Source of the DNA: Candidatus Aenigmatarchaeota archaeon
GTDB taxonomy: Archaea > Aenigmatarchaeota > Aenigmatarchaeia > Aenigmatarchaeales > Aenigmatarchaeaceae
Length of the DNA: 64,000 bases
Reading direction: 5' to 3'
NCBI GenBank assembly: GCA_043802485.1
Contig: JAZDKZ010000004.1
Coordinates: 1 to 64,000, forward strand
Positions 15,409-32,286 of this stretch are shown one piece after another. A model generated the notes under the pieces. The model had not been told where the DNA came from. It did not search any database and worked only from the letters and a program-made list of their open reading frames with translations. How positions within the stretch are numbered: position 1 is the stretch's first letter; every line of letters begins with the position of its first letter. The position numbers were made by a program, and so were the translations under genes.

Positions 15409-15412
15409 TTGA

Positions 15413-15739
15413 ATGATTGACTTGAAGAATATAGATGAGATGGTGAGGAAGATATTTGAGAATTCCTTCGAGATCAGCCTGCTCCAGGACGAGCTGGAAA
15501 GCATGCTGAACGCTATTTACAGAAATAGCGCAGAGTTTGAAAGAGGCAAGCTCTCTAGAAACGCATTCAAGACCAACGAGACCAAGATGAAAAGAAGGAG
15601 CGTCGGAATCATAAAAAGCGTAAAGGGTCTTATAAAAACCAACATAGACCTGTTGGTAAACATGAAGAGCGACATTGAGAAGCAGGACTGTAAGACCAAT
15701 ATCATTACAAAGACGAAAAAGTCTAAAAGAGGCAAATGA
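15413..15739 (+). CDS. Small helical hypothetical protein (108 aa)
   Basis: Co-oriented, 4-nt gap from the upstream gene; motif EFERGKLSRNAF. Confidence 0.75.
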   Translation: MIDLKNIDEMVRKIFENSFEISLLQDELESMLNAIYRNSAEFERGKLSRNAFKTNETKMKRRSVGIIKSVKGLIKTNIDLLVNMKSDIEKQDCKTNIITKTKKSKRGK

Positions 15740-16036
15740 ATGGCTGTAGTCAAAAAATTAAAGCTGAACTCTATAGAGAAGGGTTTGGAGGACATAGTTT
15801 CACTATGCTCCAGGATAAAGATTTCTCAGGAGGAGCTAAGCTACATAGAGCAAAAAGTCAATGAAAACAGAAAGGATTTTTCTGGCGGAACGCTATCCGA
15901 AAGCAAGTATATGGACAAGGAAAAGGATCTGAAAAGAGAGAGCCTTAGGCTATCAAAGAACATAGATTCTGACATCAAAAAGTCAATCAAGAAGATAGAC
16001 TCGGTAAAGCAGACTCTAAACAAGATAGAAATATGA
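15740..16036 (+). CDS. Small helical hypothetical protein (98 aa), possible paralogue of the upstream gene
   Basis: Abuts the previous stop; ISQEEL...DFSGGTLSESKY parallels LLQDEL...EFERGKLSRNAF. Confidence 0.75.
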   Translation: MAVVKKLKLNSIEKGLEDIVSLCSRIKISQEELSYIEQKVNENRKDFSGGTLSESKYMDKEKDLKRESLRLSKNIDSDIKKSIKKIDSVKQTLNKIEI

Positions 16037-16091
16037 AACCTGTCTGATTTGGGTTTAAATAATTTTGCCTTTAACTAGTTCTTGTGTCCGT

Positions 16092-16547
16092 ATGAAAAGG
16101 AAGATTATAAACATAATACTGTTAAACGTGCTGGTTTTTTTCGCGCTCGTATCAATACATGAGATTGCACATCTTGGAGCAGGCTATCTGATGGGCTGCG
16201 AGCACGGGAAGGCCGTTCTCCTAGATTCTGTCTTCAACGGTCCTTACACGGAGATGATTTGCACCAGCAGCCTGAACCAGACCCTAATGCACATAAGCGG
16301 CTTGATAATGACTTCTTGCTTCGGCTTGCTGTTTCTTTCATTGAAATCGCCGGGAAAGAGCATGTTCTTGGTGGTTTTCGGGCTTTCTGTGATTTTCAGC
16401 GCCTTGGACATAGGAATGGCAACCATAGAATCTGCATTATACCCTGTAATGCTGTTCGGCTTTAGCTCGGTGACAGCAGGAGAGTATTTCATAGCTTCTT
16501 CCTACATAAAAAACGACGTGCCATTTGACTGGTTTGGGCTAGAATAG
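16092..16547 (+). CDS. Small multi-pass membrane protein with HExxH (M50-like metalloprotease motif)
   Basis: IHEIAH directly after TM1; about 4 hydrophobic segments; ATG at 16092 preferred over TTG at 16065. Confidence 0.65.
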   Translation: MKRKIINIILLNVLVFFALVSIHEIAHLGAGYLMGCEHGKAVLLDSVFNGPYTEMICTSSLNQTLMHISGLIMTSCFGLLFLSLKSPGKSMFLVVFGLSVIFSALDIGMATIESALYPVMLFGFSSVTAGEYFIASSYIKNDVPFDWFGLE

Positions 16548-16588: not shown

Positions 16589-19500
16589 ATGGAAAAAGTA
16601 ACTATTTTTGCTTTTTTGGTAATTTTTGTTGCTTCTGCCGTGGGCATATACCTTCTGGGTTCAGGCATAACAGGCATGTTCATAGGCTTTGGGCAGCCTA
16701 CTGACGCCGAGTGGTGGAACGTGTCCTGGAATTACAGGGTAAGAATCGACGTGAACTCCACCCAGTATAGCAGAGACAACTGGCCTATAGAGCAGGAGAT
16801 AAACTTTACAGACATCCTGCCTTCCGGAACCTTTGATATAAACTCAACAAGGGTAATAGAGTATTCCCAGGGAGGCACGGCACTCTACGAAGTGCCCAGC
16901 CAATTCGACCAAGCCAATGATTACAGCGCATCCAACAACGCTTTGGGGACTTTGATATTCATAATGAACGGCACAACCGGTGTCAATACCAACAGAACAT
17001 TCTATTTATACTATGACACTGTAGAAAACGGGGTAAAGAAGGAGGTTTCATACTCTACAAATCTGACATACAGCTGGGACGGCCAGCTGATAACAGTAAA
17101 CAACAGCTTCATGAGACTCTTCATAGACACGAACAGGGAGGAAAACACTTCAGGTATCTACAGGTCACAGGACAAGTATGACAACATCATATTCAGCTCA
17201 GGCAATTCGGAAAAAACCACAGAATATATGGAATATTCCAACGGTACCTACAACATGTCTTTCGACCTTATAGGCAATGCTTCGTTTGTGAACGGCAGCG
17301 TCCGTATCACAGTTGAACAGAATGGGGATGAGATAATATTCGGAAGCCCGTCACAGCAAACAGGAGAAGCCAATGTTACTAAGAAATATTATGTTTACAA
17401 CAACGCAGGCCCGCAGTCAAGGGGTACCTTCATCAAGATTGTGCAGAGAGTGACGAACAGCGAAGCGTATCAAATACAAAGAAACTCAACAATGTCTGGG
17501 GCGCTGGCTTTTGATGTCAACAGGACATTCAATTCGGGTTCGATAAACAACAAGGACGGGAACACTAGCAACCCTTATTCTTGGGCTTGGGCTGTTGGAA
17601 TAGGAGGAGAGCTTGTTGGTGTGATCAATCTTCAGCAGAACGGAACTTCAAACTATTATACAAACGAGAGCAGCTCTTTAAACGGCAGGATAGGCATACA
17701 GCTTGATGACACCAGCATAGCATCTGGCTCTTACATAGAGCAATTTTCTCTGGTTTATTTCGCTGGAGCAGGAGGAGGAGATGCTGTTACAGAGTTCTTG
17801 GGCATAAAGGACAGATTCATCAATCCAGTGGAAATAACACAATCTTTGCCAGAAGTGTGGTATGTTGTCAACACTCCTTCCAGCAATGCCACAATTTTCA
17901 ACAGGAACGAGACCGCCCTTCTAATAGGCAGTGTTGTAAGCGACGACCCTTACAACCTGACAGAGTACATGAATGCAACGATAGACATGGGAACGCCTGA
18001 CACGGGAGACGACCAGACCGTGATCCTTTATGACGACGGCTCGCACGAAGATGGGTCAGCAGACAACAAGGTATTCGCAAACACCTTCGAGATACCAAAC
18101 GATGCGAACGTTACAACATGGTCAGTAAACCTTACAACATTCACAAACTATACAGAGTTCCTCAATTCGACCATGTATTATTTCAACGTGACCGATGTCT
18201 TTGACGTTGGTGTTACAATACTGAATAAAAACCCGATAGAGAACACAATGGTATTTGCTAACATAGATGTCATGAACTACAACCAAAGCCACTATATCGC
18301 AGGCGCCACGATAAACTGTTCCTTTAATTCTACAGATGTTGTTAACAAGACCGACCAGAACAACGGCACCTACTCAGTGAATTTCACTACCCCGAGCGTT
18401 GGCGACTATCTTTTGGTATGCAATGCAACAAAGAACGGCAACTTGGGCAGCAACAACGATACCTTCACTTCTGAAACCGCAGGGACGAATGTGAGCATAG
18501 TCAGCTACCCCTCTGAGATTTCTGTAACGAACGTGAGCCTTTACTGGAATGATAGCTTCTCCATAACAGCGAATGCTACAAACGTAGGCAACGGAACTGC
18601 TTATTCGTCAAACATAAGTCTCCAGCTTTTGGCAGGATGGGACGCAGACTATTTGGTGCAGGACTGTGGAGATGTTTACAAGAACGAGAACTGCACAAAG
18701 GCTTTCAATATTACGGTTCCGAACGGAACAACGCCAGGCAGCTACTACATAAACGTCAGCTCCAACTGGACCAATCCTGACAGCACGCTGGGAAGCAACC
18801 TGACCAGCCTTAATGTGACTGTGGAATCGAATCCTATAGTTGACTTGGAAGAGAACAACATAACAACAGAAGTAGCAGACGGGTATGAAAACTACATAGG
18901 GAATTTCACTGTGCTGTCAATAGGAAACGATGCCCTGCAGAACATCAGCTTTGATTGCTATCAAGGCGAGGTTTGTAATAATTTTACTTTGGAGTTCAAC
19001 CCCGTAAACATATCCGGTATTAGTGTAGGCGAGAACAATTCTGTTGCAGTCAACGTGACTGTTACTCAGGGCTACCCAGTAGGAACGTACAACGGAACTG
19101 TCAACGTGTCTGCCGGGAATGATGGTTACGACATCATAATGATGTACGTCACAGTACCGACTAAAACAAACCTCAGCATAACAGCATCACCTGAAAACTA
19201 CACTGTCTACAATATCACGCAAGCGGACAATCAGACATTTTCATTCGAAGGAATAGCTGAAAATATAGGGAACGGAAGCGCGAGGTATGCCAACATAAGT
19301 CTTCAGGTTCCTTCTGGATGGACTCCCAATTCTAGCTTAGAGAACTGTAATAACATAACAAAGAACGAGAATTGCACAAAGGCTTTCAATATTACGGTTC
19401 CGAACGGAACAACGCCAGGCAGCTACTACATAAACGTCAGCTCCAACTGGACCAATCCTGACAGCACGCTGGGAAGCAACCTGACCACGCTCAACGTGAC

Positions 19501-22444
19501 AGTCGCCTCTAATCCCAAGATTAATGTAAGCCAGAATTATGTTTCCGGGAACGCGACAGACGCCGTGAATTCTTACATAGGAAACTTCACTGTCCTGTCG
19601 ATAGGAAACGACGCCATACAGAACGTAACCTTCAACTGCATAACAGGTGATGTTTGCAACAACTTTACTGTAAACTTCAACCCAGCAAATGTTTCTAGCG
19701 TAAATGTGGGGAACAACTATTCTGTTGCAGTCAACGCGACTGTTCCTCAGGGATATCCTGCAGGAAACTATAACGGAACCGTGAACGTGTCTACCGAGAA
19801 TGATGGTTACGACACTTTCATTCTGAATGTGACAATACTTCCCAACAGGTCATGGACGCTTTATCCGACATTCTGCGAGAAGGCGGAAGAGCCTGAAGCA
19901 GGAACGGCTTGCGAAATAGAGGTAATCAACAACGGCAACGATGTGATAAACTTCACAGTAACTCCTGAGAACGGTAATTATACAACAGTCAACACAACCA
20001 ATTTCTCTGTGGCAAATGGCTTGAACTATACCTTGGTCGTGACTTACAATGTAACCAACGTCACGCCTGCCATATTCAACTCGACGTTTTTAGTCAATGC
20101 CACACAGGCAGACGCGAATCCGGACAACATGACCTTCCAGGTGAACCTTCTTCCGAACATACCCCCCATGATGGACATTAAAATAAGCCCGAACTTTACC
20201 GAGCAGAACGACTCTGTGGTGTTCTTCACGAACCTTACAGACAGGTCCAACAGCGGAATAAAATGGATGAATGTCAGCGTTACAAAGCCTGACAGCACGA
20301 CTAACAGCACCGTGATGACGCTGCTCAACCAAACAGGCAACTTTTCCCAGTGGTACCTCAACTATACACAAACCCTTGGCAACACCAGCCTAAGGGGAGT
20401 CTACAACGTTTCTTTCACCACATCCGATAATGTCGGGAATCTGGGAAACGTCAGCACGAACTTCACAATATACAAAAAGATGCTTGTGACATCAACGACC
20501 CTTTCAGGAACATATTACCAAGGAGACACTGGTTCCATATACTTTGTAATCAAGAACGCAAGCGGCATCGGCATAAACAATTCCAATATAACATTCACGA
20601 TATTAGATCCTAATGGCAACATTTCGCATTATTCGCAAGAGCAGACCAATTCCGACGGAACAATATCCCCGATGCCAACGTTCACTCTGTCTTCAGATGC
20701 TCCAATAGGAACTTACAGCTTGTTTGCGAATTACAGCTTCTACGACGAAGTCCTTAACCAAACTCTAGGTATGCAAAAAAACAGCACGTTCGGAGGCGAG
20801 TCAAGAACAATAACCGTGACAGGACTTTTCGCAGACGTCGAGACGTCCGTGGTCTGGTACCCGAACAACATAATGAAGTTCGGCATCCTTGTCTACAACG
20901 GCGAGGGAAGGCCGGTCGATCCAGATCAGATAAACCTCACTGTTTACGACCCTGCAGACAACATCTATTTTGACAGAAGCATCTCATTTCTGACAAAGGA
21001 AGCGACCGGCTACTACACCTACTCACATGCCATGGGAGTAGGGACTGCCACAGGCATGTACATGGCAGTGCTAAACGTTTCGCAGGGCTCTTTCAATTCC
21101 ATGAAAATAAAGGCATTCAGGGTTTCTCAGGGAGGTCCCTACGACGTTAGAATAAATCTTTTCGAGAACGAGGTCCCGCAAGGCGACTATCTTGATTTCG
21201 AGATAGTAATAGAGAACAAGGGCGAGGTAACCCAGGACGTTTTCGTTGAATACAACGTAACTAAACAGGGAGTGGGCTACTATTCCTTCTCCGAAGCAGT
21301 CCTGACGCCTGCCTACAGCAACCAGAGCTTTACCAGGACAGCTTTCATATACACAAACCAGCCGCTGGGAACATATGTTCTGAACGCCAAGGTGACATAC
21401 AGTATCATCCAGTCACCGATTGATGCGAACACGACATTCAGTGTCATATCAGCCGCAGAACCAAAGCCGCCGCCCACACAGTCACCAACCGGGGACAGAC
21501 CCACATTCTATGTTATAAAGCCCACGCAGGAAACTGACGCAAGCATCCTGATAACAGGCTATAACAACAACATAACTCTTGCAAGAGGTTTCACTAAAAT
21601 AGAAAGTGTCATTGTCAAAAACAGCGGTAGGGTGAACCTTAACAATATGAGTCTGTTCGTGCTCGGAGTGCCTACGAACTGGTTCAACATAACTCCTGTA
21701 AAGTATGACACACTTGTTCCAGGCAATTCATCGGTATTCCTCATAGAATTCAACATACCAGAAAACGCCAACACAGGAAACTACAAGGCAAGCCTTCTAG
21801 CCACGTCAGGAGTGGTCAGCGACCAGCAGTCTATCGAAATAAACATCTTCAGCTCTATCAAGGAGATGCTTGAAACTGAGATAGCGATGGTTGAGAAAAG
21901 CCTCATAGAGCTGAAGATAGACCTTAGGGTGGCTGAACGCGAGGGCAAGGACGTCTCAGACGTGCTCACGATTGTTGACACCATAGAGTCCTACATAGAG
22001 GATGCAAAGGATTATCTGAGAAAAAACGACCTGGACTCTGGAATGGAAAGTATAACAAGCGCCCTGAGCCTGATAAAGAGGGCAAGAGACCTGCTGGACA
22101 TGCTGGAGATGGAGGAGCCAGAACCATTCGCATCATTGATATTCGTATTCGGTATACTGATAGCAATAATACTGGTAGTGATATTGCTGGTCTACCTCTG
22201 GAGGAAGAAGAGACTGAAACAGATGTTAAGGCCTTACATGTCTCGCATAAAGGATGTCTTCCATAGGTCCAAGAATAACGAGGCAGAGCTAGAAAGCCTA
22301 AAGAAAGAGAAGGACAAGATATACAGAATGATAAAGGTACTGGACAAGGAAAGAAGCGAGGGCATGATAACAGAAGGCACGTACAACAGGATGAAGGACA
22401 GCCTTGAAAGTAGATTGAATAAAATTGAGAAAAAGCTAAAATAA
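16589..22444 (+). CDS. Large surface glycoprotein (1,951 aa): N-terminal signal/TM, DUF2341-like start, Ig-like repeats, C-terminal TM and cytoplasmic coiled coil
   Basis: N-terminal hydrophobic helix; WWNVSWNYRVRI motif; YDDGSHEDGSADNKVF Ca-binding-like loop; TM LIFVFGILIAIILVVILLVYLW followed by RKKR. Confidence 0.88.
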   Translation: MEKVTIFAFLVIFVASAVGIYLLGSGITGMFIGFGQPTDAEWWNVSWNYRVRIDVNSTQYSRDNWPIEQEINFTDILPSGTFDINSTRVIEYSQGGTALYEVPSQFDQANDYSASNNALGTLIFIMNGTTGVNTNRTFYLYYDTVENGVKKEVSYSTNLTYSWDGQLITVNNSFMRLFIDTNREENTSGIYRSQDKYDNIIFSSGNSEKTTEYMEYSNGTYNMSFDLIGNASFVNGSVRITVEQNGDEIIFGSPSQQTGEANVTKKYYVYNNAGPQSRGTFIKIVQRVTNSEAYQIQRNSTMSGALAFDVNRTFNSGSINNKDGNTSNPYSWAWAVGIGGELVGVINLQQNGTSNYYTNESSSLNGRIGIQLDDTSIASGSYIEQFSLVYFAGAGGGDAVTEFLGIKDRFINPVEITQSLPEVWYVVNTPSSNATIFNRNETALLIGSVVSDDPYNLTEYMNATIDMGTPDTGDDQTVILYDDGSHEDGSADNKVFANTFEIPNDANVTTWSVNLTTFTNYTEFLNSTMYYFNVTDVFDVGVTILNKNPIENTMVFANIDVMNYNQSHYIAGATINCSFNSTDVVNKTDQNNGTYSVNFTTPSVGDYLLVCNATKNGNLGSNNDTFTSETAGTNVSIVSYPSEISVTNVSLYWNDSFSITANATNVGNGTAYSSNISLQLLAGWDADYLVQDCGDVYKNENCTKAFNITVPNGTTPGSYYINVSSNWTNPDSTLGSNLTSLNVTVESNPIVDLEENNITTEVADGYENYIGNFTVLSIGNDALQNISFDCYQGEVCNNFTLEFNPVNISGISVGENNSVAVNVTVTQGYPVGTYNGTVNVSAGNDGYDIIMMYVTVPTKTNLSITASPENYTVYNITQADNQTFSFEGIAENIGNGSARYANISLQVPSGWTPNSSLENCNNITKNENCTKAFNITVPNGTTPGSYYINVSSNWTNPDSTLGSNLTTLNVTVASNPKINVSQNYVSGNATDAVNSYIGNFTVLSIGNDAIQNVTFNCITGDVCNNFTVNFNPANVSSVNVGNNYSVAVNATVPQGYPAGNYNGTVNVSTENDGYDTFILNVTILPNRSWTLYPTFCEKAEEPEAGTACEIEVINNGNDVINFTVTPENGNYTTVNTTNFSVANGLNYTLVVTYNVTNVTPAIFNSTFLVNATQADANPDNMTFQVNLLPNIPPMMDIKISPNFTEQNDSVVFFTNLTDRSNSGIKWMNVSVTKPDSTTNSTVMTLLNQTGNFSQWYLNYTQTLGNTSLRGVYNVSFTTSDNVGNLGNVSTNFTIYKKMLVTSTTLSGTYYQGDTGSIYFVIKNASGIGINNSNITFTILDPNGNISHYSQEQTNSDGTISPMPTFTLSSDAPIGTYSLFANYSFYDEVLNQTLGMQKNSTFGGESRTITVTGLFADVETSVVWYPNNIMKFGILVYNGEGRPVDPDQINLTVYDPADNIYFDRSISFLTKEATGYYTYSHAMGVGTATGMYMAVLNVSQGSFNSMKIKAFRVSQGGPYDVRINLFENEVPQGDYLDFEIVIENKGEVTQDVFVEYNVTKQGVGYYSFSEAVLTPAYSNQSFTRTAFIYTNQPLGTYVLNAKVTYSIIQSPIDANTTFSVISAAEPKPPPTQSPTGDRPTFYVIKPTQETDASILITGYNNNITLARGFTKIESVIVKNSGRVNLNNMSLFVLGVPTNWFNITPVKYDTLVPGNSSVFLIEFNIPENANTGNYKASLLATSGVVSDQQSIEINIFSSIKEMLETEIAMVEKSLIELKIDLRVAEREGKDVSDVLTIVDTIESYIEDAKDYLRKNDLDSGMESITSALSLIKRARDLLDMLEMEEPEPFASLIFVFGILIAIILVVILLVYLWRKKRLKQMLRPYMSRIKDVFHRSKNNEAELESLKKEKDKIYRMIKVLDKERSEGMITEGTYNRMKDSLESRLNKIEKKLK
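18680..19487 (+). repeat. Intragenic direct repeat: 127-bp copies at 18680-18806 and 19361-19487, one mismatch
   Basis: aagaacgagaa(c/t)tgcacaaaggct...ggaagcaacctgacca read at both positions; offset 681 nt = 227 codons. Confidence 0.95.
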
Positions 22445-22446
22445 AA

Positions 22447-23355
22447 TCAAGCCGAAGACGCGTAGACTGTCAGCGTGGATGTGTTCAAGTAACCCGACGG
22501 GTAACCGGCCGGAACCCAGGCGTCAACTTCTAAAATAATGGTGTAACCTGGCGTCAGGCTGCCTTCCTGCAGATAACTCGACCCAGAGCATGTAGCAAAG
22601 TCTGGGGACGTTCTCTGGTCATAGTGGTATATGTATATCTTTGTGCAGTCATAATATGCAGCCACACAGTAGCCATCAATCGGTGCGGCATTCACATAAA
22701 AATAGCCCCAACTGTCGCCTGCATCTCCCAATGATACTGCATAAGGTCCTACAGGCGTCCTAGTGGCTGTGGTACCCAAGTCTACCTGATCCTCAATAGC
22801 AAACTGCGCATTCGTGTTGTTACAATAACCGTCAGTACCGTTTCCTAATACCCAAACATAGTCACTACTTGTGTTCCTTAGATATCCCCATGCTATTGCA
22901 TCTGCAGTGTCTACTGCTGACCAATCATTGTTAGGTATGTCCTGCGTCCAGTTCCACTCCAGTCTTCCCGCAAAATAAAAGCCAGAGTCAGTCTCGTTCT
23001 TCAATGCTATGACGCCGCCGGCAGAATAGTTTGTCGGGTAGGCAAGTCCGTACGGCCTCACAGGCTCAGTATCTATCGTATCGACATACGCATATATTTC
23101 TGTCACGTTTATAGAACCGCTGTTCTTTATGTTCAAGTACTTTACTCCACCTGCCTGTGATGTTCCAATGCTGGACCAGTTCAAAGAGTTGGGAACAACT
23201 GTTATAGAAGCCGCTTCTGTGACATTCACATCCATAGTCACTGTATCGTTAGCGGCCGCAAAGACTGGAACTGAAGTGATTACTGAACCGATCGCAAAAA
23301 TCACAAAAAAAGCTGCCAAAATAGCGCCAAAAAACAATATTTTCTTTTTTATCAT
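22447..23355 (-). CDS. Secreted beta-rich protein without a membrane anchor; candidate fibre/pilus major subunit
   Basis: Signal peptide ending VFAAA; mature N-terminus DTVTMDVNVTEAASITVVPNSLNW; C-terminus VPAGYPSGYLNTSTLTVYASSA; GGGTG RBS upstream. Confidence 0.75.
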   Translation of the reverse strand: MIKKKILFFGAILAAFFVIFAIGSVITSVPVFAAANDTVTMDVNVTEAASITVVPNSLNWSSIGTSQAGGVKYLNIKNSGSINVTEIYAYVDTIDTEPVRPYGLAYPTNYSAGGVIALKNETDSGFYFAGRLEWNWTQDIPNNDWSAVDTADAIAWGYLRNTSSDYVWVLGNGTDGYCNNTNAQFAIEDQVDLGTTATRTPVGPYAVSLGDAGDSWGYFYVNAAPIDGYCVAAYYDCTKIYIYHYDQRTSPDFATCSGSSYLQEGSLTPGYTIILEVDAWVPAGYPSGYLNTSTLTVYASSA

Positions 23356-23440
23356 TGTTTACACCCTTATAAGGTTAATAATAATTTCAAAGGACCGCTA
23401 TATAAATATTATTATATTGTTATAGACACAATAAAATTCT
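23356..23440. promoter_or_regulatory. Divergent AT-rich promoter region between the candidate fibre subunit and the chaperone-like operon
   Basis: 85-bp AT-rich gap containing tatataaat and related TATA-like elements between divergent genes. Confidence 0.55.
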
Positions 23441-24373
23441 ATGAAACTTCGTTCTCTGGCAGTAACAGCACTCTTCTTTTCGCTTCTAATGCTGTCCAAC
23501 CGCGCTTTCTCGGCACCAAACTACAATGTGGGGGTGTCCCCAGGATCGATAGACCTTGGAGAGGTTGAGGCAGGCACGACAAAGGTAGTAGATTTCTACA
23601 TAGTCACAATGTCAGAAGAGACTATGTTAGTGCGGCTTGATCCAGAAACTGTGATTTTTGATACTGTTCCGTTTAAGAACAACTTTTCTGAAGAAAACAT
23701 GCTATCATGGATAAACATCATAGACAACCCAGTCGAACTTGAACCAAAATACGAGACTTTGCAGACGTTGGGGGGCAGCATAAACAGCCATAGACAAGTC
23801 AGTTTCTTAATCAATATACCTGATGACGCAGAGCCAGGATACCACATGATAAAGATGAAACCAGTGCCACTGGCAACGCGGGAAGAGATAGGCTCGGTAG
23901 GGAGCATGGTTGTGGCAGTGACGTCCGTAAAGGTCATGTTCAATGTTGCCGGCGACCCTGTCAGAAAGGGAACAATACTTGACGTGGAGACCGGCAGCTA
24001 CAGAGAAGGTTCTGTTGAAATGAAGACATATTTTCAGAACACCGGAACTGTCACAATATCTGCCAACGGCAACCAGAAAATATATGACAAGGAGGGCAAG
24101 CTGGTGGGCACAATAAACCTTGGCAAGACCTACATAGCACCCAAGGAAATAAAAACTTTCAGAGGGACGCTGAAAACAGCAGACCTTCCCCCTGAAGAAT
24201 ATAATGTATATACTGTCATCGACTACACGACTGGAAAGGCGGAAAAAAGCTCCTCAATAGAGCTATCGCCAGCCACGTCGCTGGCCATAGAGCAAGGAGG
24301 CGACATGACGCTGCTCTTTCTCATCCTAATAGTATTAATTGTTTCGATAATAATATACAGAAGAGTAAGATGA
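23441..24373 (+). CDS. Two-Ig-domain membrane-anchored protein resembling DUF916/DUF3324 (WxL-interacting) or PapD-like chaperones
   Basis: Signal peptide; VGVSPGSIDL...SWI...VSFLINIPDDAEPGYH; second domain FQNTGTV...IYDKEGKLV...YIAPKEIKTF; C-terminal TM followed by RRVR. Confidence 0.7.
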   Translation: MKLRSLAVTALFFSLLMLSNRAFSAPNYNVGVSPGSIDLGEVEAGTTKVVDFYIVTMSEETMLVRLDPETVIFDTVPFKNNFSEENMLSWINIIDNPVELEPKYETLQTLGGSINSHRQVSFLINIPDDAEPGYHMIKMKPVPLATREEIGSVGSMVVAVTSVKVMFNVAGDPVRKGTILDVETGSYREGSVEMKTYFQNTGTVTISANGNQKIYDKEGKLVGTINLGKTYIAPKEIKTFRGTLKTADLPPEEYNVYTVIDYTTGKAEKSSSIELSPATSLAIEQGGDMTLLFLILIVLIVSIIIYRRVR

Positions 24374-24870
24374 ACGCAAAATATCTGCTATTGGCCCTTG
24401 TTGTTGTTTTCGTGCTGCTTGCAAACATGTTGGAGCCTCCTGAACCAGCAGGAACAGTTGGGAACAAGACTGTTGGCAACTACTCCAACCTGTTCTTTAG
24501 CTACAACATAATAAGGTATCCGTCTTCTGTGGAGATAACGCCCGCAGAGAGCCTGAACAACTCGATAGTGCTGGGGTTCGCCACAGAGAGCTGGAGCATC
24601 AACTTTGGCTCGGTGCCGGCCAAGGGCAGCTATGCCACCAGGACTGTAGACATTTCGAACTCCAATGAATTCGACGTAGAGATAATCATGAAGGCCTACG
24701 GCAACATATCGGACATGGTCATCTTCAGAGAAAACAACATTGTCCTTGAGCCTGGTGAGAAGAAATCAGTGGGTATTGTTCTGGAGAGCAAAGAGGATAT
24801 CGGCAACTATTCGGGTGAAATTGACATCATGATCAAGAAACCTATTTATATTTTTCCCTCTATAGTTTGA
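24370..24870 (+). CDS. Secreted/anchored single Ig-like domain protein
   Basis: ATGA overlap; N-terminal hydrophobic helix; INFGSVP...GNYSGEIDI. Confidence 0.75.
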   Translation: MNAKYLLLALVVVFVLLANMLEPPEPAGTVGNKTVGNYSNLFFSYNIIRYPSSVEITPAESLNNSIVLGFATESWSINFGSVPAKGSYATRTVDISNSNEFDVEIIMKAYGNISDMVIFRENNIVLEPGEKKSVGIVLESKEDIGNYSGEIDIMIKKPIYIFPSIV

Positions 24871-24873
24871 TTG

Positions 24874-25620
24874 ATGAGGAATTCTTTATTCATTGTCGGT
24901 TGCTTCCTGCTGTTGATATGCACAGCATACGCTGCGTCTGTCGAGGTTGGTATATCCGAGGTTATGGAAGGAAAGTTGATATCACTGTCGCATGATAATG
25001 CCACAAATATTGTAAAATTTTCTGCAGAGTTCTACAATACAGGAAGCGTGCCGTACAAGACTAGGATGAAGACAGAGATAATCAAAGGCGATGAAACAGT
25101 CTTCAATGGTTGGAGCGACGAGAAAGACTTTATGCCAGGCGACAAGAGAATGTTCGAAACATATTGGCATGCCACAACCTCTGGAGCATATTCTGTAAAG
25201 CTGAAAGCCTACTTTGGGAACGAAATCAAAGAATACAAAAAGGTTGATTTTGTTGTGGGCAGTGTGGCAGACTCTGAAGACGTCTTTGCCATAGAAAACT
25301 TTAGAACATATGATGATTACGTTCTGTTTGATGTCGTGTCAAATGAAGACGTTGAGAATGTGATAATAATGCCTTCAGGCTATACTGCCGGTTGGATATT
25401 CGAACAGAAAACGATAGATAACCTGACAAAAAACAGCTCAAAGTACGTCATGATCAAATACAAACCAACTCTTTGGTCGCGTTCTGCTGTCAAAATGTCA
25501 ATAGTCTCTGATGACGGCAAGTACTATACAGAGGAATCGCTTGAAATGAAAAAGCTGGAAGGCCTGACAGGTCTCTATTTCTATATTACAGACAGCATCA
25601 AATATGCTCTTTTCAAGTAA
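24874..25620 (+). CDS. Secreted Ig-like protein (~248 aa)
   Basis: Signal peptide ending AYA; FYNTGSVP motif shared with the Ig domains of neighbours (FLNSGTEK, FQNTGTV). Confidence 0.78.
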   Translation: MRNSLFIVGCFLLLICTAYAASVEVGISEVMEGKLISLSHDNATNIVKFSAEFYNTGSVPYKTRMKTEIIKGDETVFNGWSDEKDFMPGDKRMFETYWHATTSGAYSVKLKAYFGNEIKEYKKVDFVVGSVADSEDVFAIENFRTYDDYVLFDVVSNEDVENVIIMPSGYTAGWIFEQKTIDNLTKNSSKYVMIKYKPTLWSRSAVKMSIVSDDGKYYTEESLEMKKLEGLTGLYFYITDSIKYALFK

Positions 25621-25725: not shown

Positions 25726-25944
25726 TTGACGGAAAACGGGCTCACAGGCAATGATTTCGAGAAAAAGGTTCTTGACCTGCTAAGTCAGGAGCTGCTTTCT
25801 GTTTCTCAGATAGCCAAAAAACTCGGGATAAGAAGGGATGTTGCAGCAGGCTATCTCGAGGCATTGAAGAACCAGGGAAAGCTGGAGCTCCATAAGGTGG
25901 GCAGATCCAACATATACATGGTTCCAAGGAGGCCGAAGAAATGA
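25726..25944 (+). CDS. Small winged helix-turn-helix transcription regulator
   Basis: LSVSQIAKKLGIRRDVAAGYLEALKNQGKLELHKVGRSNIY is a typical wHTH; TTG start. Confidence 0.82.
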   Translation: MTENGLTGNDFEKKVLDLLSQELLSVSQIAKKLGIRRDVAAGYLEALKNQGKLELHKVGRSNIYMVPRRPKK

Positions 25945-28310
25945 AAAGAGCGCTTTTCCTGGCAGTTGTAATGCTCCTGCTTTCGATTCAAGTAGCTTCG
26001 GCAGCGCCAGTCATACAGAACGTCTCCATCAGCCCGTCAAGCCCGTGGTTGGGCGAGAACGTCAACATCTACCTGTCGTGCGCAGACAGTTTGAACAATT
26101 CGATAGAAAGCGTGTATGCAGACATAACAGGGCCCAGCATAACCCTTCCAAGGCTTCACTTTTCAGGTTATGAAAACTATCAGCTGACTGTCAGCAAGGA
26201 TTATCTTGACAGGACAGGGCTATACAATGCTATGATATACTGTAAGAACAACCTGAGCAATGTCTCAAGCAATGCAACCAGCTTTTACGTTTCAAGCCTC
26301 ATAGGATACATAAGCATTGTCAATCCTGAACCAGCGTACATAGGGGACACAATAACGATAGACTTTGTGCTAGAGAAGGATGGCGCAAGAATAACGACGG
26401 GGGCAGCTTTCAATGTCTCGCTTAACGGCGTGCTGAAAACCCTGAAGGTCGTTCCTGCCTATGACAGCATCAGGGGATGGATACTGAAGCTTGATGCACC
26501 CACAACTTCTGGCAACTACGACTTGGACGCTGTGGCGTTTTATGGTGGCACAAGCGTGTCAGACTCGGACACGATAGACGTCAGGAACAGCATAGAGTTT
26601 GAAATAGTTTCCATGGACAAAAACTGGATCAAGGGCAATGACAACATGACTGTAGTGCTTAGGGCTATGGAAAAGGGCAGCGTCATCGATCTTGACAAGA
26701 GCGATGTTGGGATAAAGATAGGGTCAGGCGATGCTGAAGTTACCGGATTTTCCAGACAAGGCGACACTTATGTTGCAAATATAATAGCACCCACATTGTC
26801 GCCAGGAAGATACCAGCTGGAGGCGTACCTCTATCATGCTGGCAAGACATATTCTGACAGTAGGTCGGTTGACTACATAGTCGCCGTGTCAGGAGACATA
26901 GTGGATGCCAACAACAAGGCTGTCAGCACGCAGATAAAGTTCATCCAGTATGGCGTTACCAAGCTTACGTTGTCAAGCGATTCTTACGGACATTATAGCG
27001 GTTCAATACCTCTGGGCACGTACGACATAACTGTCAGCTTTCCCAAATCGAAACTCGAGTTGACCAGCGTTCTTGTCAACAATTTCGACGACCCGATAAA
27101 CCATTTTTATGGGGACGACTTTGAAATAACCGGCCTGAGAAACGCGGGAGTTTACAACTATGACATTGACCTCACATATTCAATAGTCAGGATTGAGATG
27201 GACTATAATGAAAAGAACATAGTGGACGAGAACAATCTCAGAGTATACAGGTGCTCAGAATGGAACTCCGGGAAGAAGGTTTGCAATGATGAATGGGAAG
27301 AGATAGGCTATGAAATAGACATGATAAGAAACAAAGCAAAAGTCAACTCTTCGAGCCTGTCGGCTTTTGTGATAGGAGAGGTAAAGGACATTAATGTAAT
27401 TTTCAGCCTTGACAAAGAAGAGTACAACCTTGATGAAAAAATAAAGGTTTCTGGCATAGTCAAGGATGCTGACGGCAAAAGCGTGAGCAACGCTTCTCTT
27501 CGCGTCTATATCAAAAACACACTAGAAAGCCTTGACACTATTGCCGACAACAACGGCGTCTTCTCCTTAGAGCTCGATGTTCCGGAGAACGAGGGAGAGT
27601 ATCTGATAGTAGTGGAGGCTGAAAAGGAACCGTATAACGATTTCAAGGGAGAGAAGAGCTTTGATGTTGTGAAAAGCAGGTCTCTCTTTATAGATTTCCC
27701 AGAAACTGTAAGAATAGAGAGGGGCAAGAACTTTAGCCAGGAGTTCACTATTTTGAACAATGGTCAAATCAATATTGATAACATAATGTTAACCTTGGAG
27801 GGGCTTCCTTCAGAGTATTACAACATAAGGCCTGAAACAATAGGCTTGGACGTGGATGAAAGCAGGACCATCTACATAGACTTTTCAGTTCCTGTTTATG
27901 CAGAAACTGGGATATCAAGTGTCAGTTTGAAAGCAGAGAATGAGGAGCTTTCAGAAGAGATTGTTTTCGGTTTCAATGTCTTCGAGGAGGATGACCAGGT
28001 TTCAGTGCCGACAACAGGACTTGCCACAGGCTTTGCAATACCGCAGATAAGCTATATGGAATTGGTTTATGTGGGCGTTTTTGCAGTAGTTTGTTTTTCC
28101 GCGGCAATTCTTTTGAAGAAGAGGACAGCTGGGGACAAAAGAAGCAATATAAGGAGCTTCCTTTTCGGTGTCAGAAAATATATGAGCTTTGATGACAGAA
28201 CGTCTGTTGTGAAAAAAGATGGCTCGTATGACAAGCTGATAATAACAGAATTTCCTAATGTTTTAAAATTTTCCAATAATTTGACTCAAACAGAAAAAGG
28301 TGATAAATAA
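25941..28310 (+). CDS. Membrane-anchored multi-Ig surface protein (789 aa)
   Basis: Signal peptide ending ASA; carboxypeptidase-regulatory-like beta domains; TM LVYVGVFAVVCFSAAILL followed by KKR. Confidence 0.82.
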   Translation: MKRALFLAVVMLLLSIQVASAAPVIQNVSISPSSPWLGENVNIYLSCADSLNNSIESVYADITGPSITLPRLHFSGYENYQLTVSKDYLDRTGLYNAMIYCKNNLSNVSSNATSFYVSSLIGYISIVNPEPAYIGDTITIDFVLEKDGARITTGAAFNVSLNGVLKTLKVVPAYDSIRGWILKLDAPTTSGNYDLDAVAFYGGTSVSDSDTIDVRNSIEFEIVSMDKNWIKGNDNMTVVLRAMEKGSVIDLDKSDVGIKIGSGDAEVTGFSRQGDTYVANIIAPTLSPGRYQLEAYLYHAGKTYSDSRSVDYIVAVSGDIVDANNKAVSTQIKFIQYGVTKLTLSSDSYGHYSGSIPLGTYDITVSFPKSKLELTSVLVNNFDDPINHFYGDDFEITGLRNAGVYNYDIDLTYSIVRIEMDYNEKNIVDENNLRVYRCSEWNSGKKVCNDEWEEIGYEIDMIRNKAKVNSSSLSAFVIGEVKDINVIFSLDKEEYNLDEKIKVSGIVKDADGKSVSNASLRVYIKNTLESLDTIADNNGVFSLELDVPENEGEYLIVVEAEKEPYNDFKGEKSFDVVKSRSLFIDFPETVRIERGKNFSQEFTILNNGQINIDNIMLTLEGLPSEYYNIRPETIGLDVDESRTIYIDFSVPVYAETGISSVSLKAENEELSEEIVFGFNVFEEDDQVSVPTTGLATGFAIPQISYMELVYVGVFAVVCFSAAILLKKRTAGDKRSNIRSFLFGVRKYMSFDDRTSVVKKDGSYDKLIITEFPNVLKFSNNLTQTEKGDK

Positions 28311-29086
28311 TGGTAAGAATAATAAGCATTGTCTCTGGCAAGGGCGGCGTTGGCAAGACAACGCTCGCAGCCAACCTTGGAGTTGCTTTGCAAAAGTACA
28401 ACAAGAAAGTGGCAGTGATAGACTTCAACATAACGACGTCCCATCTCAGCCTCTACTTTGACATGTACAAGTGCCCGCTGACCCTGAACAACTTCCTTAG
28501 AAACGAGGTGAAGCTTGAGGACGCCATCTACTCTCATGAATCTGGCCTGAGTGTTGTGCCAGCTTCTCTTAAACTGAACGACGTTGTGAACCTTGATGTC
28601 AGCAACCTGAAAGAAAAGCTAAGGCAGGTGTTTAGCAGTTATGATATAGTTATTCTTGATTCAGCACCAGGACTGGGAAAGGAGGCGCTGATAGCACTGC
28701 AGGCAAGCGACGAGATTCTGTTCGTGGCAAACCCCTTCATACCGTCGCTGGTTGACATAGAAAAGTGCAAACATGTCATTAGCACTCTTCAGACAAGACC
28801 CATGCCGATAGGCGTTGTGGTGAACCGAGTCAGGAACAAGAAGTACGAGCTGACTATGGACGAGATACAACAGTTCCTAGAGCTTCCGATAATAGGCTAT
28901 ATCCCAGAGGATGAGGAAGTGCTGGCAAGCTTCAACAGGAAGACGCTCGTGGCATCGTCAAAAAAGGATTCCCCTTCCAAGAAAGCTTTCTTCAAGATAG
29001 CTGCCAAAATCGCTGGGCACAAGTACAACTATGGGTTTTGGGAAAAGCTGAAGATGTCCTTCAAAAAGAAAAAAGAGTTTGGTTGA
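28310..29086 (+). CDS. minD: MinD/ParA-family ATPase (MinD-like, copy 1)
   Basis: Deviant Walker A SGKGGVGKTT; DSAPGLG; C-terminal amphipathic GFWEKLKMSF. Confidence 0.9.
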   Translation: MVRIISIVSGKGGVGKTTLAANLGVALQKYNKKVAVIDFNITTSHLSLYFDMYKCPLTLNNFLRNEVKLEDAIYSHESGLSVVPASLKLNDVVNLDVSNLKEKLRQVFSSYDIVILDSAPGLGKEALIALQASDEILFVANPFIPSLVDIEKCKHVISTLQTRPMPIGVVVNRVRNKKYELTMDEIQQFLELPIIGYIPEDEEVLASFNRKTLVASSKKDSPSKKAFFKIAAKIAGHKYNYGFWEKLKMSFKKKKEFG

Positions 29087-29101
29087 GGTTTTTCTGTGAG
29101 C

Positions 29102-30427
29102 ATGCGTTTCAAAGGAATGCTTTTTTTAATTTTACTAGTCCTACTGATAAACTGCTCTATCGTTTTCGCCCAGGCAGTTGTTCAGTACAACCAGACAGGT
29201 GCTCCCTATTTAGACACGGGCGAGACCCCTTCAGGGGACTATAATGATTTGAATATTCTGGGAGAGGATTTGACTTATGATATCGTCGAAGAGTTTAGGT
29301 TCGGCAACAATTTCGTCGATGTCTGGCACAACTCAACCCAGATAGCTGACGGCAACATAGACTCCATCAACGCCACAATAAATTTTACCACCAATGTCTC
29401 TGACGACTATAGCCTGAACATATATGACTGGTTCAATTCTATTTGGGTTTCCGCAGGATGCGATTCTGGAAGCGTTTTGGCGGACACGCCGATGAAATGG
29501 TGGTGCAACATCACGACAGATGCCATGAATTACAACTCGTCTGACAGAAGGATAAGGTTCAAGATAAACTCCACAGGAGACTCTGATGTCGGCCTGCTGA
29601 AAGAGGACTATGTCCAATACTACGTGGGTTATCTGAGTTATCTGGAAGTCAACATGACCAACCCCGACCCAGTGGCAACAATGAACGTTATACAGAACCG
29701 GACTTTTTTCGCAAACACCTCTGTGATTTGCAGGGACGGACCGTGCGGAGAGGTTTTTGCAACAATATTGTATAACCTCTCATCCGTTTATCCAGACACG
29801 CCCGTCAATACCACGGAAGGTGACAAACCGCTTTACATACAGGAAAGCCCTGCCAATGCGCTAAAGTCGTGCGGAACATTGGACAAGGACGAACCGTGTC
29901 TCATCAACTGGTCAATGAACGCCACAGGAGTTATCGGCAGCGAATGGAAAATCGGTGCTGTGTTCAATTCGTCGTATACGCAAATAGAAGGCAACAGCAC
30001 CGACAACGTGACGATTTCCATAAACGACTGCACGGTGGACATAAGCATACAGTGGGAGTCTGTTGTCTTCGGGCTGTTGGATCCCAGCACATCGGAGAAC
30101 AGCGCCTCAGGCAATGACGGCAACGAATACAACATAACTGTCAATCCAGGGAGCTGCAATCTTGACATCTACATAAACGGGACAGACATAACCAATGCGA
30201 CTCTGGGATATACCATAGACGCCTCAAACGTCAGCTGGAGCAACACGACCAACCTTTTCTCAGAGTCTCACAACATGTCGACATCAGTCAGCCTATTAAA
30301 ATCAGATGTTCCGGAAGGTACCAATGTAACAACATGGTACTGGATGAACGTGCCTCCTGTTTACACAGGTTATTACAAGGGAACAATATCCATATGGGGT
30401 GTGAAAAATGGCCAAAGTTCTCCTTAG
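29102..30427 (+). CDS. Secreted glycoprotein whose C-terminal domain resembles the candidate fibre subunit (possible tip/minor subunit)
   Basis: Signal peptide; C-terminal domain TVDISIQWESVVFG...WMNVPPVYTGYYKGTISIWG; no C-terminal TM. Confidence 0.72.
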   Translation: MRFKGMLFLILLVLLINCSIVFAQAVVQYNQTGAPYLDTGETPSGDYNDLNILGEDLTYDIVEEFRFGNNFVDVWHNSTQIADGNIDSINATINFTTNVSDDYSLNIYDWFNSIWVSAGCDSGSVLADTPMKWWCNITTDAMNYNSSDRRIRFKINSTGDSDVGLLKEDYVQYYVGYLSYLEVNMTNPDPVATMNVIQNRTFFANTSVICRDGPCGEVFATILYNLSSVYPDTPVNTTEGDKPLYIQESPANALKSCGTLDKDEPCLINWSMNATGVIGSEWKIGAVFNSSYTQIEGNSTDNVTISINDCTVDISIQWESVVFGLLDPSTSENSASGNDGNEYNITVNPGSCNLDIYINGTDITNATLGYTIDASNVSWSNTTNLFSESHNMSTSVSLLKSDVPEGTNVTTWYWMNVPPVYTGYYKGTISIWGVKNGQSSP

Positions 30428-31031
30428 ACTTTCATCGGTTCTTCTGTCCTTGATCCTGCTATCGACCAGCGCATACTCGATAAACATAGGCAGTGTCATC
30501 AAAAACGACTTTGCAGAAACATCAATTAACGAGTCAGCCAGCTTCAAAATATTATTCTGGAACTCTGGAAACGAATCTTACGCATTGAAGCTTGCTGTAT
30601 CCGGCCAGCCTGAAGGGTGGGCAGTGATAATAGACCCTGAAGAATTCGTTTTGAACAAGTCTGTGGGCGAGGAATACATCAGCCTTCCTTACATGAACGA
30701 AAACATCAGGGCAAAGGTTGTAAACGTCTTTGTAAAGCCTGATTCGGAAAGCCTGAGCGGAAACTATTCTGTCACCATAGTCTCTGGCGCCGTATATGAC
30801 ACTCCATATTTGCTGACGGTCGTCCCTAAAACGTCTTTTGTTTTGAGAATAGGTTTGAAAGGCGGCAGAACGGAGAACAAGGAAGCCGAAGTACAAAACG
30901 CAAAAGAGAATATTGATAATGAAATCGCGGAGGTGATGATTGACGGTGAAGAAAGCAGCGACAGCGTTCTTCTTCTTGTTTTAGTTTTTCTTATCCTGGG
31001 CGCGGCGATAGCTGTATACAAAAAATCTTAA
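30408..31031 (+). CDS. Single Ig-like (NEW3-like) domain membrane-anchored protein
   Basis: Signal peptide; PEGWAVIIDP...SGNYSVTI; C-terminal TM. Confidence 0.75.
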   Translation: MAKVLLRLSSVLLSLILLSTSAYSINIGSVIKNDFAETSINESASFKILFWNSGNESYALKLAVSGQPEGWAVIIDPEEFVLNKSVGEEYISLPYMNENIRAKVVNVFVKPDSESLSGNYSVTIVSGAVYDTPYLLTVVPKTSFVLRIGLKGGRTENKEAEVQNAKENIDNEIAEVMIDGEESSDSVLLLVLVFLILGAAIAVYKKS

Positions 31032-31062: not shown

Positions 31063-32286
31063 ATGAGAGAGTTTTGGCCGCATATTCTTCTTCTATTGCT
31101 AGTTCTAGTCGCATTGGCCTACTTGGTGCCTTATGGCATAACGGGCATGACAATGCACCAGATATCTTTGTCGATTAAGAGCAACATGAGCGGCCAGATA
31201 TCTGCCTTTAACTATGAGCCGATAGCCAACATTTCAGAAATACAAGACATATATGTAGAGTTCCTCAATTCAGGCACAGAGAAGTACACGCTAACGCTTG
31301 AGGTGTTCATCTACTACTATTCTGACAGATTGAAAGAGATGGCGCATTATCAGGATTCCAGCGTTGTCCTTTATCCTGGAATGAGAAGGCCGTTCGAGAC
31401 AAAGTTCCTTCCAAACGAGATGGGATACTATTACATAAAGGTAAGAGTAACCATGGGGACCAAGAGGATGGAAGCTTGGGGAAGCTTCTATGTAACTTAC
31501 CCGGACTACAGTCCTTTCATACCGGCCCAGTACCAGCCATACGGAACGTATGCTGAGGTAACGCCCTCCCTGAACATAAGCTATCCTGAATCAGTGGTGG
31601 TCTATCCTGGCAGGAGCGTTCTGACAAACATCAGGGTGCAGAACATAGGAAATGCCACCATACACGAAGTAAAGATGCATCTATCCGCTTCAAACCTTCT
31701 GGAAATAGACATGAACCCGAAGGAGTCGTATTATCTTGACCCGGGCAAGACGTTGACATTCCTGCTGGACATATACGCGCCGAGTGACATGCCCATAGGC
31801 GAATATCCGATAGACTTTGAGCTTGTCACAAGGGAGTTGAAGGACAGTGGAACAATAGTTGTGAACGTGACAGCATACAACGTATCACTCAAGGAGGAAG
31901 TTGGTAAAACAATTCTCAATTATGACTTGCTAATAGCCCAGTTGGAAAGGGAGATCCTGGACGCCCGGGCAAAGGACATAAACACAACCTTGGCTGAAAA
32001 CGATTTGGAACTTGCCAAAACTAGGATGCAGGAAGCCAAGGACTATTATGTACAGGAGGATTATGAATCGGCAAAAGACTCGTTGGACGATGTCAAGGAC
32101 ATTCTGAAGGACGCTGTTCTAAAGCTTGCCCAAGCGTCTTTCGTGGTTTTCGTTGCCCCAGCGTTCAGTCCGCTCTGGCTACTTTTGATAATAATCATGA
32201 TAGCGCTGGTGCTATTGTTCATACAGAGAAGAGAGAGGAAAGAGAAGAAACCGAAACTGCTTAGAACTTCAGATTCTGAAGCATAG
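31063..32286 (+). CDS. Membrane-anchored Ig-like plus helical-bundle surface protein (407 aa)
   Basis: N-terminal TM with GITGM; CARDB-like VQNIGNA; helical bundle; C-terminal TM with basic tail. Confidence 0.8.
   Translation: MREFWPHILLLLLVLVALAYLVPYGITGMTMHQISLSIKSNMSGQISAFNYEPIANISEIQDIYVEFLNSGTEKYTLTLEVFIYYYSDRLKEMAHYQDSSVVLYPGMRRPFETKFLPNEMGYYYIKVRVTMGTKRMEAWGSFYVTYPDYSPFIPAQYQPYGTYAEVTPSLNISYPESVVVYPGRSVLTNIRVQNIGNATIHEVKMHLSASNLLEIDMNPKESYYLDPGKTLTFLLDIYAPSDMPIGEYPIDFELVTRELKDSGTIVVNVTAYNVSLKEEVGKTILNYDLLIAQLEREILDARAKDINTTLAENDLELAKTRMQEAKDYYVQEDYESAKDSLDDVKDILKDAVLKLAQASFVVFVAPAFSPLWLLLIIIMIALVLLFIQRRERKEKKPKLLRTSDSEA

Follow-up and report, generated by a model that had tools for sequence, protein, structure and literature searches.

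Pili that are assembled with the guidance of a chaperone and without an usher were first reported in 2026. The Elr pili of Enterococcus and other Bacillota, as described in the available parts of a preprint, grow by donor-strand exchange and comprise the pilin ElrD and the chaperone ElrE, a membrane-anchored protein of the WxLIP (DUF916/DUF3324) type whose donor strand spans residues 139-153 (10.64898/2026.10.17.759780; PDB 9i25 and 9i1y). The same source gives the Elr/WxL system as confined to Bacillota among 4,698 RefSeq genera, with one proteome per genus, and includes a two-gene co-expression of ElrD and ElrE. The Pam pili of Ca. Mycosynbacter amalyticus, for which membrane-anchored chaperones are predicted, are reported in the accessible text as exclusive to the Candidate Phyla Radiation (CPR) (PMC13278184). 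The cannulae and the tafi, which are strand-donation filaments of archaea, are described as chaperone-free in the portions of the reports at hand (PMC11821415, PMC12337348); the tafi consist of TafA/TafE fibres and have a TafD signal peptidase (PMC11821415), and TLP-1 fibrils, by the available account, are also of the N-terminal donor-strand type (PMC11494351). In the literature consulted, mostly open-access main texts, no WxLIP-like or chaperone-guided pilus is described for Aenigmatarchaeota or other archaea; the supplementary genome screens of two 2026 preprints could bear on this novelty.

Here we analyse a gene cassette at positions 22,447-25,620 of the window, i.e., the first 64,000 nucleotides of contig JAZDKZ010000004.1 from an 89%-complete genome of an Aenigmatarchaeota archaeon, a member of a group of tiny archaea that are uncultured. 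The cassette encodes a secreted protein of 302 amino acids (A) and, facing it, a predicted membrane-anchored chaperone (B) followed by proteins C and D. We consider it probable, with the mechanism inferred, that the cassette encodes an archaeal variant of the chaperone-guided, usher-free donor-strand pili.

The open reading frame of A (22447-23355, minus strand) codes for 302 amino acids without internal stops. A is the predicted major fibre subunit, with a signal peptide, a free N-terminal strand and an incomplete immunoglobulin-like (Ig) core. Its sole hydrophobic segment lies at residues 8-26, and none of the 54 A-family open reading frames at related loci has a C-terminal membrane helix, in agreement with a preliminary description of this DNA in which the protein was called secreted and unanchored. 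A Sec/signal peptidase I signal peptide is predicted for residues 1-33 (23257-23355, minus strand), ending in V31-x-A33. Alanine occupies position 33 in 90 of 104 rows, which suits a signal-peptidase site just ahead of the alternating strand, and cleavage after residue 33 is the site predicted from the sequence. The strand motifs listed in the preliminary description were found at residues 38-45 (TVTMDVNV), 50-60 (SITVVPNSLNW) and 281-299 (VPAGYPSG...TLTVYA). The first of them falls in the predicted donor strand (residues 36-47; 23215-23250, minus strand), in which hydrophobic residues alternate and which is unbridged in the monomer model. Hydrophobic residues fill positions 41, 43 and 45 in 98-100% of rows and positions 40, 42, 44 and 46 in at most 6%, alike in an alignment of 115 close homologues and in one of 126 diverse homologues. 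Because the alternation is kept in both sets, the N-terminal pattern is, on the evidence of these alignments, selected and not a product of chance. The C-terminal VPxGxPxG loop and last strand (22456-22515, minus strand) form a conserved chain end; in every row with a residue in the A299 column (114 of 115 close and 126 of 126 diverse rows) the chain terminates 0-7 residues past it. A large insertion, roughly residues 95-265, is carried by the Ig core, and A contains 11 sequons for N-glycosylation and 4 cysteines that likely form two disulfides. No significant Pfam or NCBIfam family was found for A; PF12389 matched 2 of the 126 diverse rows with a best E of 0.01, and searches of PDB sequences with A, its two profiles, the B profile and the profile of the C-terminal domain of a neighbouring protein (H, see below) returned nothing meaningful.

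The AlphaFold2 model of A, built from the 115 close rows, has a predicted local distance difference test score (pLDDT) of 92.3 and a predicted template-modelling score of 0.82. Residues 26-50 have no beta-bridge or secondary-structure partner in this monomer model, yet pLDDT reaches 98 at residues 41-50; with this stretch unpaired, the model is not the self-complete monomer that the preliminary description had named as an argument against strand exchange. In VIA-align comparisons with complete PapD/MSP/ASH domains, the alignment uses A up to residue 301-302 while the target ends early (FimC 1-92, WxLIP 3-128, MSP 4-96 of 124 and SCS2 1-92 of 126); we take the G1 strand of FimC to lie beyond residue 92. 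With pilins, in contrast, the alignment reaches the C-terminus and often includes an N-terminal extension: residues 34-302 align with FimF 1-154, residues 33-302 with FimA 5-159 and residues 32-302 with Caf1 1-149. The longest alignments are to donor-strand subunits (the TasA fibre, TLP-1b and FimA; values below). All VIA-align matches of A have Z below 8 and none is relied on singly, but the pattern of ranges is informative: because alignments to complete domains stop early and those to pilins run to the C-terminus, the modelled A is read as an Ig core whose last strand is missing, joined to a free N-terminal strand, i.e., as pilin topology.

B (23441-24373, plus strand) is an L-shaped protein of 310 amino acids with two Ig domains and a C-terminal membrane anchor, and from its fold and membrane helix it is predicted to be a WxLIP/DUF916-DUF3324-like chaperone. 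Its model (pLDDT 88.6) shows two beta-sandwich domains and a C-terminal helix at residues 289-309; of 33 B open reading frames, 32 carry a membrane helix at the C-terminus. The first VIA-align row for B was WxLIP bound to WxL (9i25_C; Z 13.4, root-mean-square deviation (rmsd) 6.2, 220 of 251 residues aligned), and the same Enterococcus faecium chain gave the best template-modelling (TM) score in Foldseek (E 4e-10, TM 0.44/0.52). Both domains of B superpose on CfaA, Caf1M, FimC and DraB with rmsd 6-7, in contrast to 12-16 for linear tandem-Ig proteins. The Atlas search placed B with a PF06030+PF11797 cluster at 0.94 (218 shared features) and with Minisyncoccota clusters at 0.95. In the model, a low-confidence loop (about residues 145-157) is followed by a strand at residues 158-169. 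B 19-171 aligns with Caf1M 4-146, which spans the Caf1M G1 donor strand (122-139), and residues 155-169 of B (23903-23947, plus strand), after this loop, are therefore the positional equivalent, a predicted G1-like chaperone donor strand. An arginine is found at position 175, at the elbow of B (23963-23965, plus strand), in all 119 rows and all 8 distant homologues, and this invariant Arg175 is a candidate anchor for the C-terminus of the subunit. No significant Pfam or NCBIfam family, and no PapD Pfam match, was found for B. The modelled fold leads us to predict that B is a WxLIP-like chaperone for A.

The two genes tend to occur together. We counted 145 homologues of A among 3248 candidates, and 185 representatives at 50% identity; named homologues are nearly all from Aenigmatarchaeota. 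Among 301 genomes of this phylum, A was found in 111 and B in 120 at E<=1e-3. At E<=1e-15, A was found in 96 and B in 93, with both in 85, only A in 11, only B in 8 and neither in 197; the genomes are incomplete and mutually related, and these counts are descriptive. A second class contributes 42 genomes, of which 33 have A, 31 have B and 27 have both. In 32 of a set of 45 related genome loci, many of them short stretches, no more than 0.7 kb separates B from an A gene, with the two genes divergent in 27 and co-oriented in the order A>B>C>D in 5; of the other 13, which lack B, seven break off no further than about 310 bases upstream of A. The pairing of A and B survives this inversion as well as a drop to about 25-35% identity across classes. 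Tandem A paralogues beside a single B are common, with three at locus L022 and four at each of L049, L064 and L065.

A quick tree of 114 representatives, which serves only to note two subfamilies, places in the second subfamily a protein labelled Altiarchaeales by NCBI; the label rests on NCBI names within the same 90% cluster as the protein of locus L046. The order A | B-C-D with a MinD gene occurs in 4 of 7 metagenome loci of this Altiarchaeales type, and the other three are short contigs. Between D and MinD, these loci carry what appears by eye to be a RecA/KaiC-like ATPase (L046:6722-7507, L047:6671-7414, L049:894-1637 and L051:6661-7404). A Micrarchaeota-labelled record (G301) was set aside as evidence of range because it looks isolated, with matches in 3 of the 251 genomes searched from its phylum and a strong one only in G301 itself. 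A further locus from that phylum (L055, G417:C16:1-2848) contains a weak match to the N-terminal part of A (E 8e-7) in an open frame of 5606 amino acids.

The genes of B, C and D (23441-24373, 24370-24870 and 24871-25620, plus strand) overlap or abut and are therefore likely one transcript. C is a protein of 166 amino acids with a single ASH/PapD-like Ig domain and a hydrophobic N-terminal segment. Because this segment lacks an obvious AxA site, C is, judged by its sequence, more likely N-anchored than freely secreted, and it is possible that C acts as a minor subunit or base adaptor. The preliminary description had a two-Ig anchored protein, which is B, and two further secreted Ig proteins facing A; the first part stands and the second needs correction for C. 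D (249 amino acids) starts with an alternating strand, continues with a domain related to the second domain of B, and is a candidate terminator. None of the 31 D orthologues from the 45 genome loci has a C-terminal membrane helix; a hydrophobic C-terminal stretch was noted by eye in loci of the L046 type.

The unit described as 22447-25620 is real but larger, and it continues on the plus strand with several genes. A protein of 72 amino acids with weak ArsR/Csa3 helix-turn-helix matches (25726-25944), a winged helix-turn-helix (wHTH) protein and possible regulator, is followed by F (25941-28310), a multi-Ig protein of 789 amino acids with a C-terminal membrane helix that is conserved beside the cassette, and by an archaeal MinD-type ATPase (28310-29086; TIGR01969, over the cut-off). 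H (29096-30427) is a secreted protein of 443 amino acids with a constant, pilin-like C-terminal domain and a variable N-terminal part; its 15 orthologous open reading frames range from 278 to 1206 amino acids around the constant domain, which ends like a pilin. By its architecture H is a candidate tip adhesin; PF13731 matched its C-terminal domain in 0 of 15 rows, with no profile link to WxL. I (30408-31031; 207 amino acids) has a single Ig domain and a C-terminal membrane helix, with an HH probability of 9.5% to the first domain of B, and could possibly be a second chaperone or anchor. J (31063-32286), a membrane-anchored protein of 407 amino acids with an alternating N-terminal strand, is a candidate base anchor or terminator. 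A second archaeal MinD-type ATPase (TIGR01969, over the cut-off) is encoded at 32600-33367. J and D share a domain (HH 98%) that is related to the second domain of B (95% for J and 61% for D), and both begin with a conserved strand of alternating residues where B has its donor strand, and both lack the first domain of B. No significant Pfam or NCBIfam family was found for C, D, H or I.

Convergent with A lies P (16589-22444, plus strand), a tandem-Ig membrane glycoprotein of 1951 amino acids with 123 sequons, which by eye is present in 25 of the 45 related loci. A position profile of A strand 36-46 scores inter-domain strands of P, U and H at 12-17 bits and scores D and J poorly; it also gives 20.9 to other alternating strands, and we give it little weight. 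Four genes at 13222-16547 (plus strand) encode a charged coiled-coil protein of 728 amino acids with SHOCT-like repeats, proteins of 108 and 98 amino acids, and a membrane protein of 160 amino acids. They have no family, and in several relatives their order between P and a giant ATPase fusion is kept. The latter is an open reading frame (2-13225, plus strand) that is open from the contig start and encodes at least 4407 amino acids, with 274 N-glycosylation sequons in the 4354 amino acids from the first start codon, many Ig-like repeats and one membrane helix near residue 3960. It also has a cytoplasmic HerA/DUF87-type ATPase with Walker A and B motifs and weak matches to CedD, HerA and TraB. 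Its C-terminus is conserved near the cassette in 7 of the 45 loci, a count limited by the length of most stretches, which end before this gene; the distant loci that were retrieved did not show it. A short motif of the GITG or TTG type adjoins membrane segments at the N-terminus of P (16589-16700), the N-terminus of J (31063-31200) and the C-terminus of F (about 28000-28050), and is possibly a lineage-specific processing or sorting signal. Just past rpl1-rpl10-rpl12, a membrane protein of 511 amino acids with Ig/NPCBM-associated character (35841-37376, plus strand) has an N-terminal domain weakly like D.

C and D occur 31 times each in the 45 loci. Six stretches come from the second class: three have A | B-C-D-(MinD)-F, two place A next to J, I, H and F and B at a greater distance, and one has A alone. 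In this class, genes that by eye encode MoxR-like AAA ATPases adjoin the cassette (L065:2988-3992 and L066:11123-14288), with a BatA/vWA-like gene, likewise assigned by eye from motifs, at L066.

A and B are separated by a divergent spacer of 85 bp (23356-23440). An AAGGGTG sequence resembling a ribosome-binding site lies 6 nt ahead of the A start codon (23368-23362), and GGAGG occupies this position in 3 of 9 aligned relatives. A TATA-like element at 23399-23406, which we take to be an archaeal TATA box, can be read in either direction and is shared by 9 of the 10 spacers aligned. Because this single element reads on both strands, the candidate promoter of A may be shared with B; of the good ribosome-binding site and own promoter attributed to A earlier, the latter therefore needs correction. 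Scans for sigma-70 promoters are unsuited to archaea and were given no role. A conserved ATATAATAAT motif stands immediately upstream of the shared element in most aligned spacers, and as a sequence motif it is a possible binding site of the neighbouring wHTH protein.

From what was directly observed, namely gene conservation, signal and membrane segments, modelled monomer folds, synteny and co-occurrence, we infer a glycosylated surface fibre that has A as its likely main subunit and that would grow by donor-strand exchange, primed by B and without an usher. Sec would export A, which would be cut after residue 33. Strand 155-169 of B would then fill the groove that A has in place of its missing last Ig strand, and Arg175 would hold the free C-terminus of A. 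Displacement of the B strand by strand 36-47 of the next A would give a head-to-tail polymer at the membrane. H, with an acceptor-type C-terminal domain and a variable N-terminal payload, would sit at the tip; J or D, with a strand like the B donor strand and without the first domain of B, would cap and anchor the base. By analogy, D and J fit donor-only terminators such as ElrB or PamR. The fibre would likely serve adhesion of a symbiotic cell to its host or to a surface.

Several results weigh against this mechanism. At the sequence level, the WxL domain PF13731 matched 0 of 126 A rows, and PF06030 and PF11797 matched 0 of 119 B rows and nothing in the genome. Strict membership in the WxL system was rejected on these counts, and PF13731 was also absent from the genome as a whole, with L. 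lactis as a positive control. Foldseek returned nothing for A at E<=1e-3, and every VIA-align match of A stays below Z 8, with non-pilin ASH domains in the top rows. No WxL chain was among the listed fold-search rows of A, which speaks neither for nor against a WxL fold. A and H have no profile similarity (HH 0.2%). A beta-galactosidase domain ties with WxLIP as a match for B at Z 13.4, over one domain. Mean-field coevolution analysis of A (276 rows, effective number about 207) recovers intradomain contacts, e.g., C230-C256, and gives no clear register of residues 38-46 with the C-terminal strand; the best register is antiparallel to 46-54 (mean z 1.32 versus -0.03 +/- 0.36) and could equally be an intrachain hairpin, and a parallel register with 53-61 ranks fifth. 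Six of the loci that lack B, 13 in total, extend 870 bp or more upstream of A and still show no B in the available stretch. Finally, A ranks 441 of 547 by codon bias, a weak proxy for expression by which rpl10 ranks 238, and strand bias leaves this low rank unexplained.

The absence of a codon signature of high expression suits a reading in which the same chaperone-subunit chemistry builds a short stalk or static platform, made of few subunits, that shows H or links the giant Ig glycoproteins, and no long fimbria. Membrane-anchored Ig proteins abound in the cluster, which stands beside the glycoproteins of 1951 and at least 4407 amino acids, and a static platform was once proposed for WxL clusters, as the available text of the Elr preprint relates (10.64898/2026.10.17.759780). 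A, however, combines a donor strand with an acceptor groove and has no anchor, which allows open-ended growth; its tandem paralogues resemble PamA/PamB/PamE, and for Elr the same account gives up the platform in favour of a pilus. We think a short stalk or platform quite unlikely.

The fold searches with A also suit fibres of the TasA/AbpA/cannula type, in which A would polymerise by itself without a fold-completing chaperone and B would be only a membrane nucleator or anchor, like TapA or RbmA. Among VIA-align results for A, the longest alignments were to the TasA fibre (137 residues, Z 6.2, rmsd 3.8) and TLP-1b (133 residues, Z 6.1, rmsd 3.8), followed by FimA and FimI (131 each), AbpA (118; Z 5.5) and CanA (113), with Tafi at Z 4.5; all of these are below Z 8, a range also reached by unrelated models. 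The TasA fibre also had the top Foldseek probability (0.57), and the Atlas structure search with A returned camelysin/TasA clusters (TM 0.38 by query). For B, the lowest Foldseek E (2.8e-10) belongs to RbmA, a non-chaperone scaffold, with a TM of only 0.26, and assembly of archaeal strand-donation filaments is described in the accessible text as likely chaperone-independent (PMC12337348). Against these stands the shape of B, which superposes in its L-form on WxLIP and on chaperone-usher chaperones and not on RbmA (rmsd about 16), and the invariance of its elbow arginine. SipW is the dedicated signal peptidase of TasA fibres. The sole match of the genome to the archaeal signal peptidase family TIGR02228 lies on contig C6, outside the cluster, and none of the 15 cluster proteins scanned matched DUF5305 or DUF1102. 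A tafi-type fibre was rejected for the same lack of a SipW/TafD-type peptidase, DUF5305 and DUF1102 in the cluster. Self-assembly of A with B as a mere nucleator is, in our judgement, a slim chance.

Very improbable is a monomeric secreted glycoprotein A (an S-layer accessory or lectin-like adhesin) with a self-completing strand, beside unrelated Ig proteins B, C and D of a surface-gene island: the top VIA-align rows for A are ordinary, non-pilin ASH/PapD-like domains (Z up to 7.1, all below 8), the best coevolution register may be a hairpin and no Pfam family links A to pilins, but the strand finds no partner in the confidently predicted monomer model, A and B stay together despite inversion and sequence divergence, and the best full-length match of B is a pilus chaperone.

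Beyond the chaperone-primed fibre itself, a bolder reading makes it the outer portion of an organelle by which DPANN symbionts attach to their hosts and which is encoded in roughly 33 kb. A glycosylated, chaperone-built donor-strand pilus with exchangeable tips and paralogues would be placed by the two MinD ATPases and coupled to the Ig-stalk/HerA-VirB4-type ATPase protein of at least 4407 amino acids, as a powered attachment or uptake device. We regard this as unlikely on present evidence; if true, the organelle would have no described counterpart, and WxLIP-type assembly would occur in both prokaryotic domains.

The genome was also searched for components of other filament systems. A type IV pilus or archaellum was rejected for this locus: A is not among the 25 of 899 open reading frames that match a loose class III signal pattern, and T2SSF genes lie on contigs C1, C6 and C7 and not in the cassette cluster. 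Type IV pilus-type loci with many short class III signal-peptide proteins are found on C1 (about 9-13 kb), C6 (about 16-25 kb and 199-219 kb) and C7 (about 75-80 kb), and the cell likely makes type IV filaments as well. No usher (PF00577) was matched in the 89%-complete genome, with E. coli as a positive control. The suggestion of a non-type-IV fibre with a membrane-bound assembly factor and no usher is supported by these results together with the WxLIP match of B. LPxTG-anchor families had no match among the cluster proteins, which have C-terminal membrane helices instead.

If the proposed mechanism is true, this assembly route would reach into Archaea, since a WxLIP-like chaperone paired with a donor-strand subunit occurs in about one third of the searched Aenigmatarchaeota genomes and also in other archaeal groups. 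A would then be a candidate attachment fibre for symbionts whose contact with their hosts is poorly understood.

Among the systems to which the locus had been likened, WxL/DUF916 remains the closest, and the likeness to TasA/Abp and Csu is confined to the subunit fold. B superposes on the chaperones FimC, Caf1M, CfaA and CsuC of the Fim, Caf, Cfa and Csu pili with Z 9-10, and A aligns end-to-end, including N-terminal extensions, with FimA, FimF, FimI and Caf1 (Z 4.5-5.8). However, a chaperone-usher pilus was rejected, because no usher was matched in the 89%-complete genome and the predicted chaperone is tethered to the membrane and resembles PapD in fold only, with no sequence similarity. TasA/CalY, AbpA, CanA, the tafi (TafA/TafE) and TLP-1 have an N-terminal donor strand and an incomplete Ig-like core, as predicted for A, and are among its longest fold alignments (Z 4.5-6.2, all below 8). 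They differ in being described, in the texts at hand, as chaperone-free or as having the TafD peptidase and DUF5305/DUF1102, whereas the cassette has a WxLIP-like protein.

The Pam pili, likened here by their description in the accessible text (PMC13278184), also come from a small-genome symbiont and have several pilin paralogues, predicted membrane-anchored PapD-like chaperones, a tip pilin and a membrane terminator with an N-terminal strand, and no usher. The Pam pilin, in contrast, has an N-terminal beta-sandwich and donates an internal linker strand, whereas A would donate its extreme N-terminus, with no domain before it. The Elr/WxL pili differ in that the cassette lacks WxL, DUF916 and DUF3324 Pfam matches, A is larger, with a disulfide-bonded insertion and the N-glycosylation sequons, and membrane helices take the place of an LPxTG/sortase anchor, none of which was seen in the cassette, with MinD ATPases and giant Ig proteins alongside. 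In other respects the two agree: B has the two-domain WxLIP fold with a C-terminal membrane helix, the genes of chaperone and pilin lie less than 10 kb apart (32 of 45 loci), there is no usher, the subunit is unanchored with a free N-terminal strand, and candidates for a strand-donating anchor are present. The layout of H, a constant C-terminal domain with a variable payload, is also that of the WxL tip adhesins as portrayed in the available parts of the preprint (10.64898/2026.10.17.759780). Because neither A nor B matches the WxL/DUF916 Pfam profiles, and with an architecture other than that of Pam, the cassette would resemble the Elr and Pam pili in how it works and yet belong to neither system.

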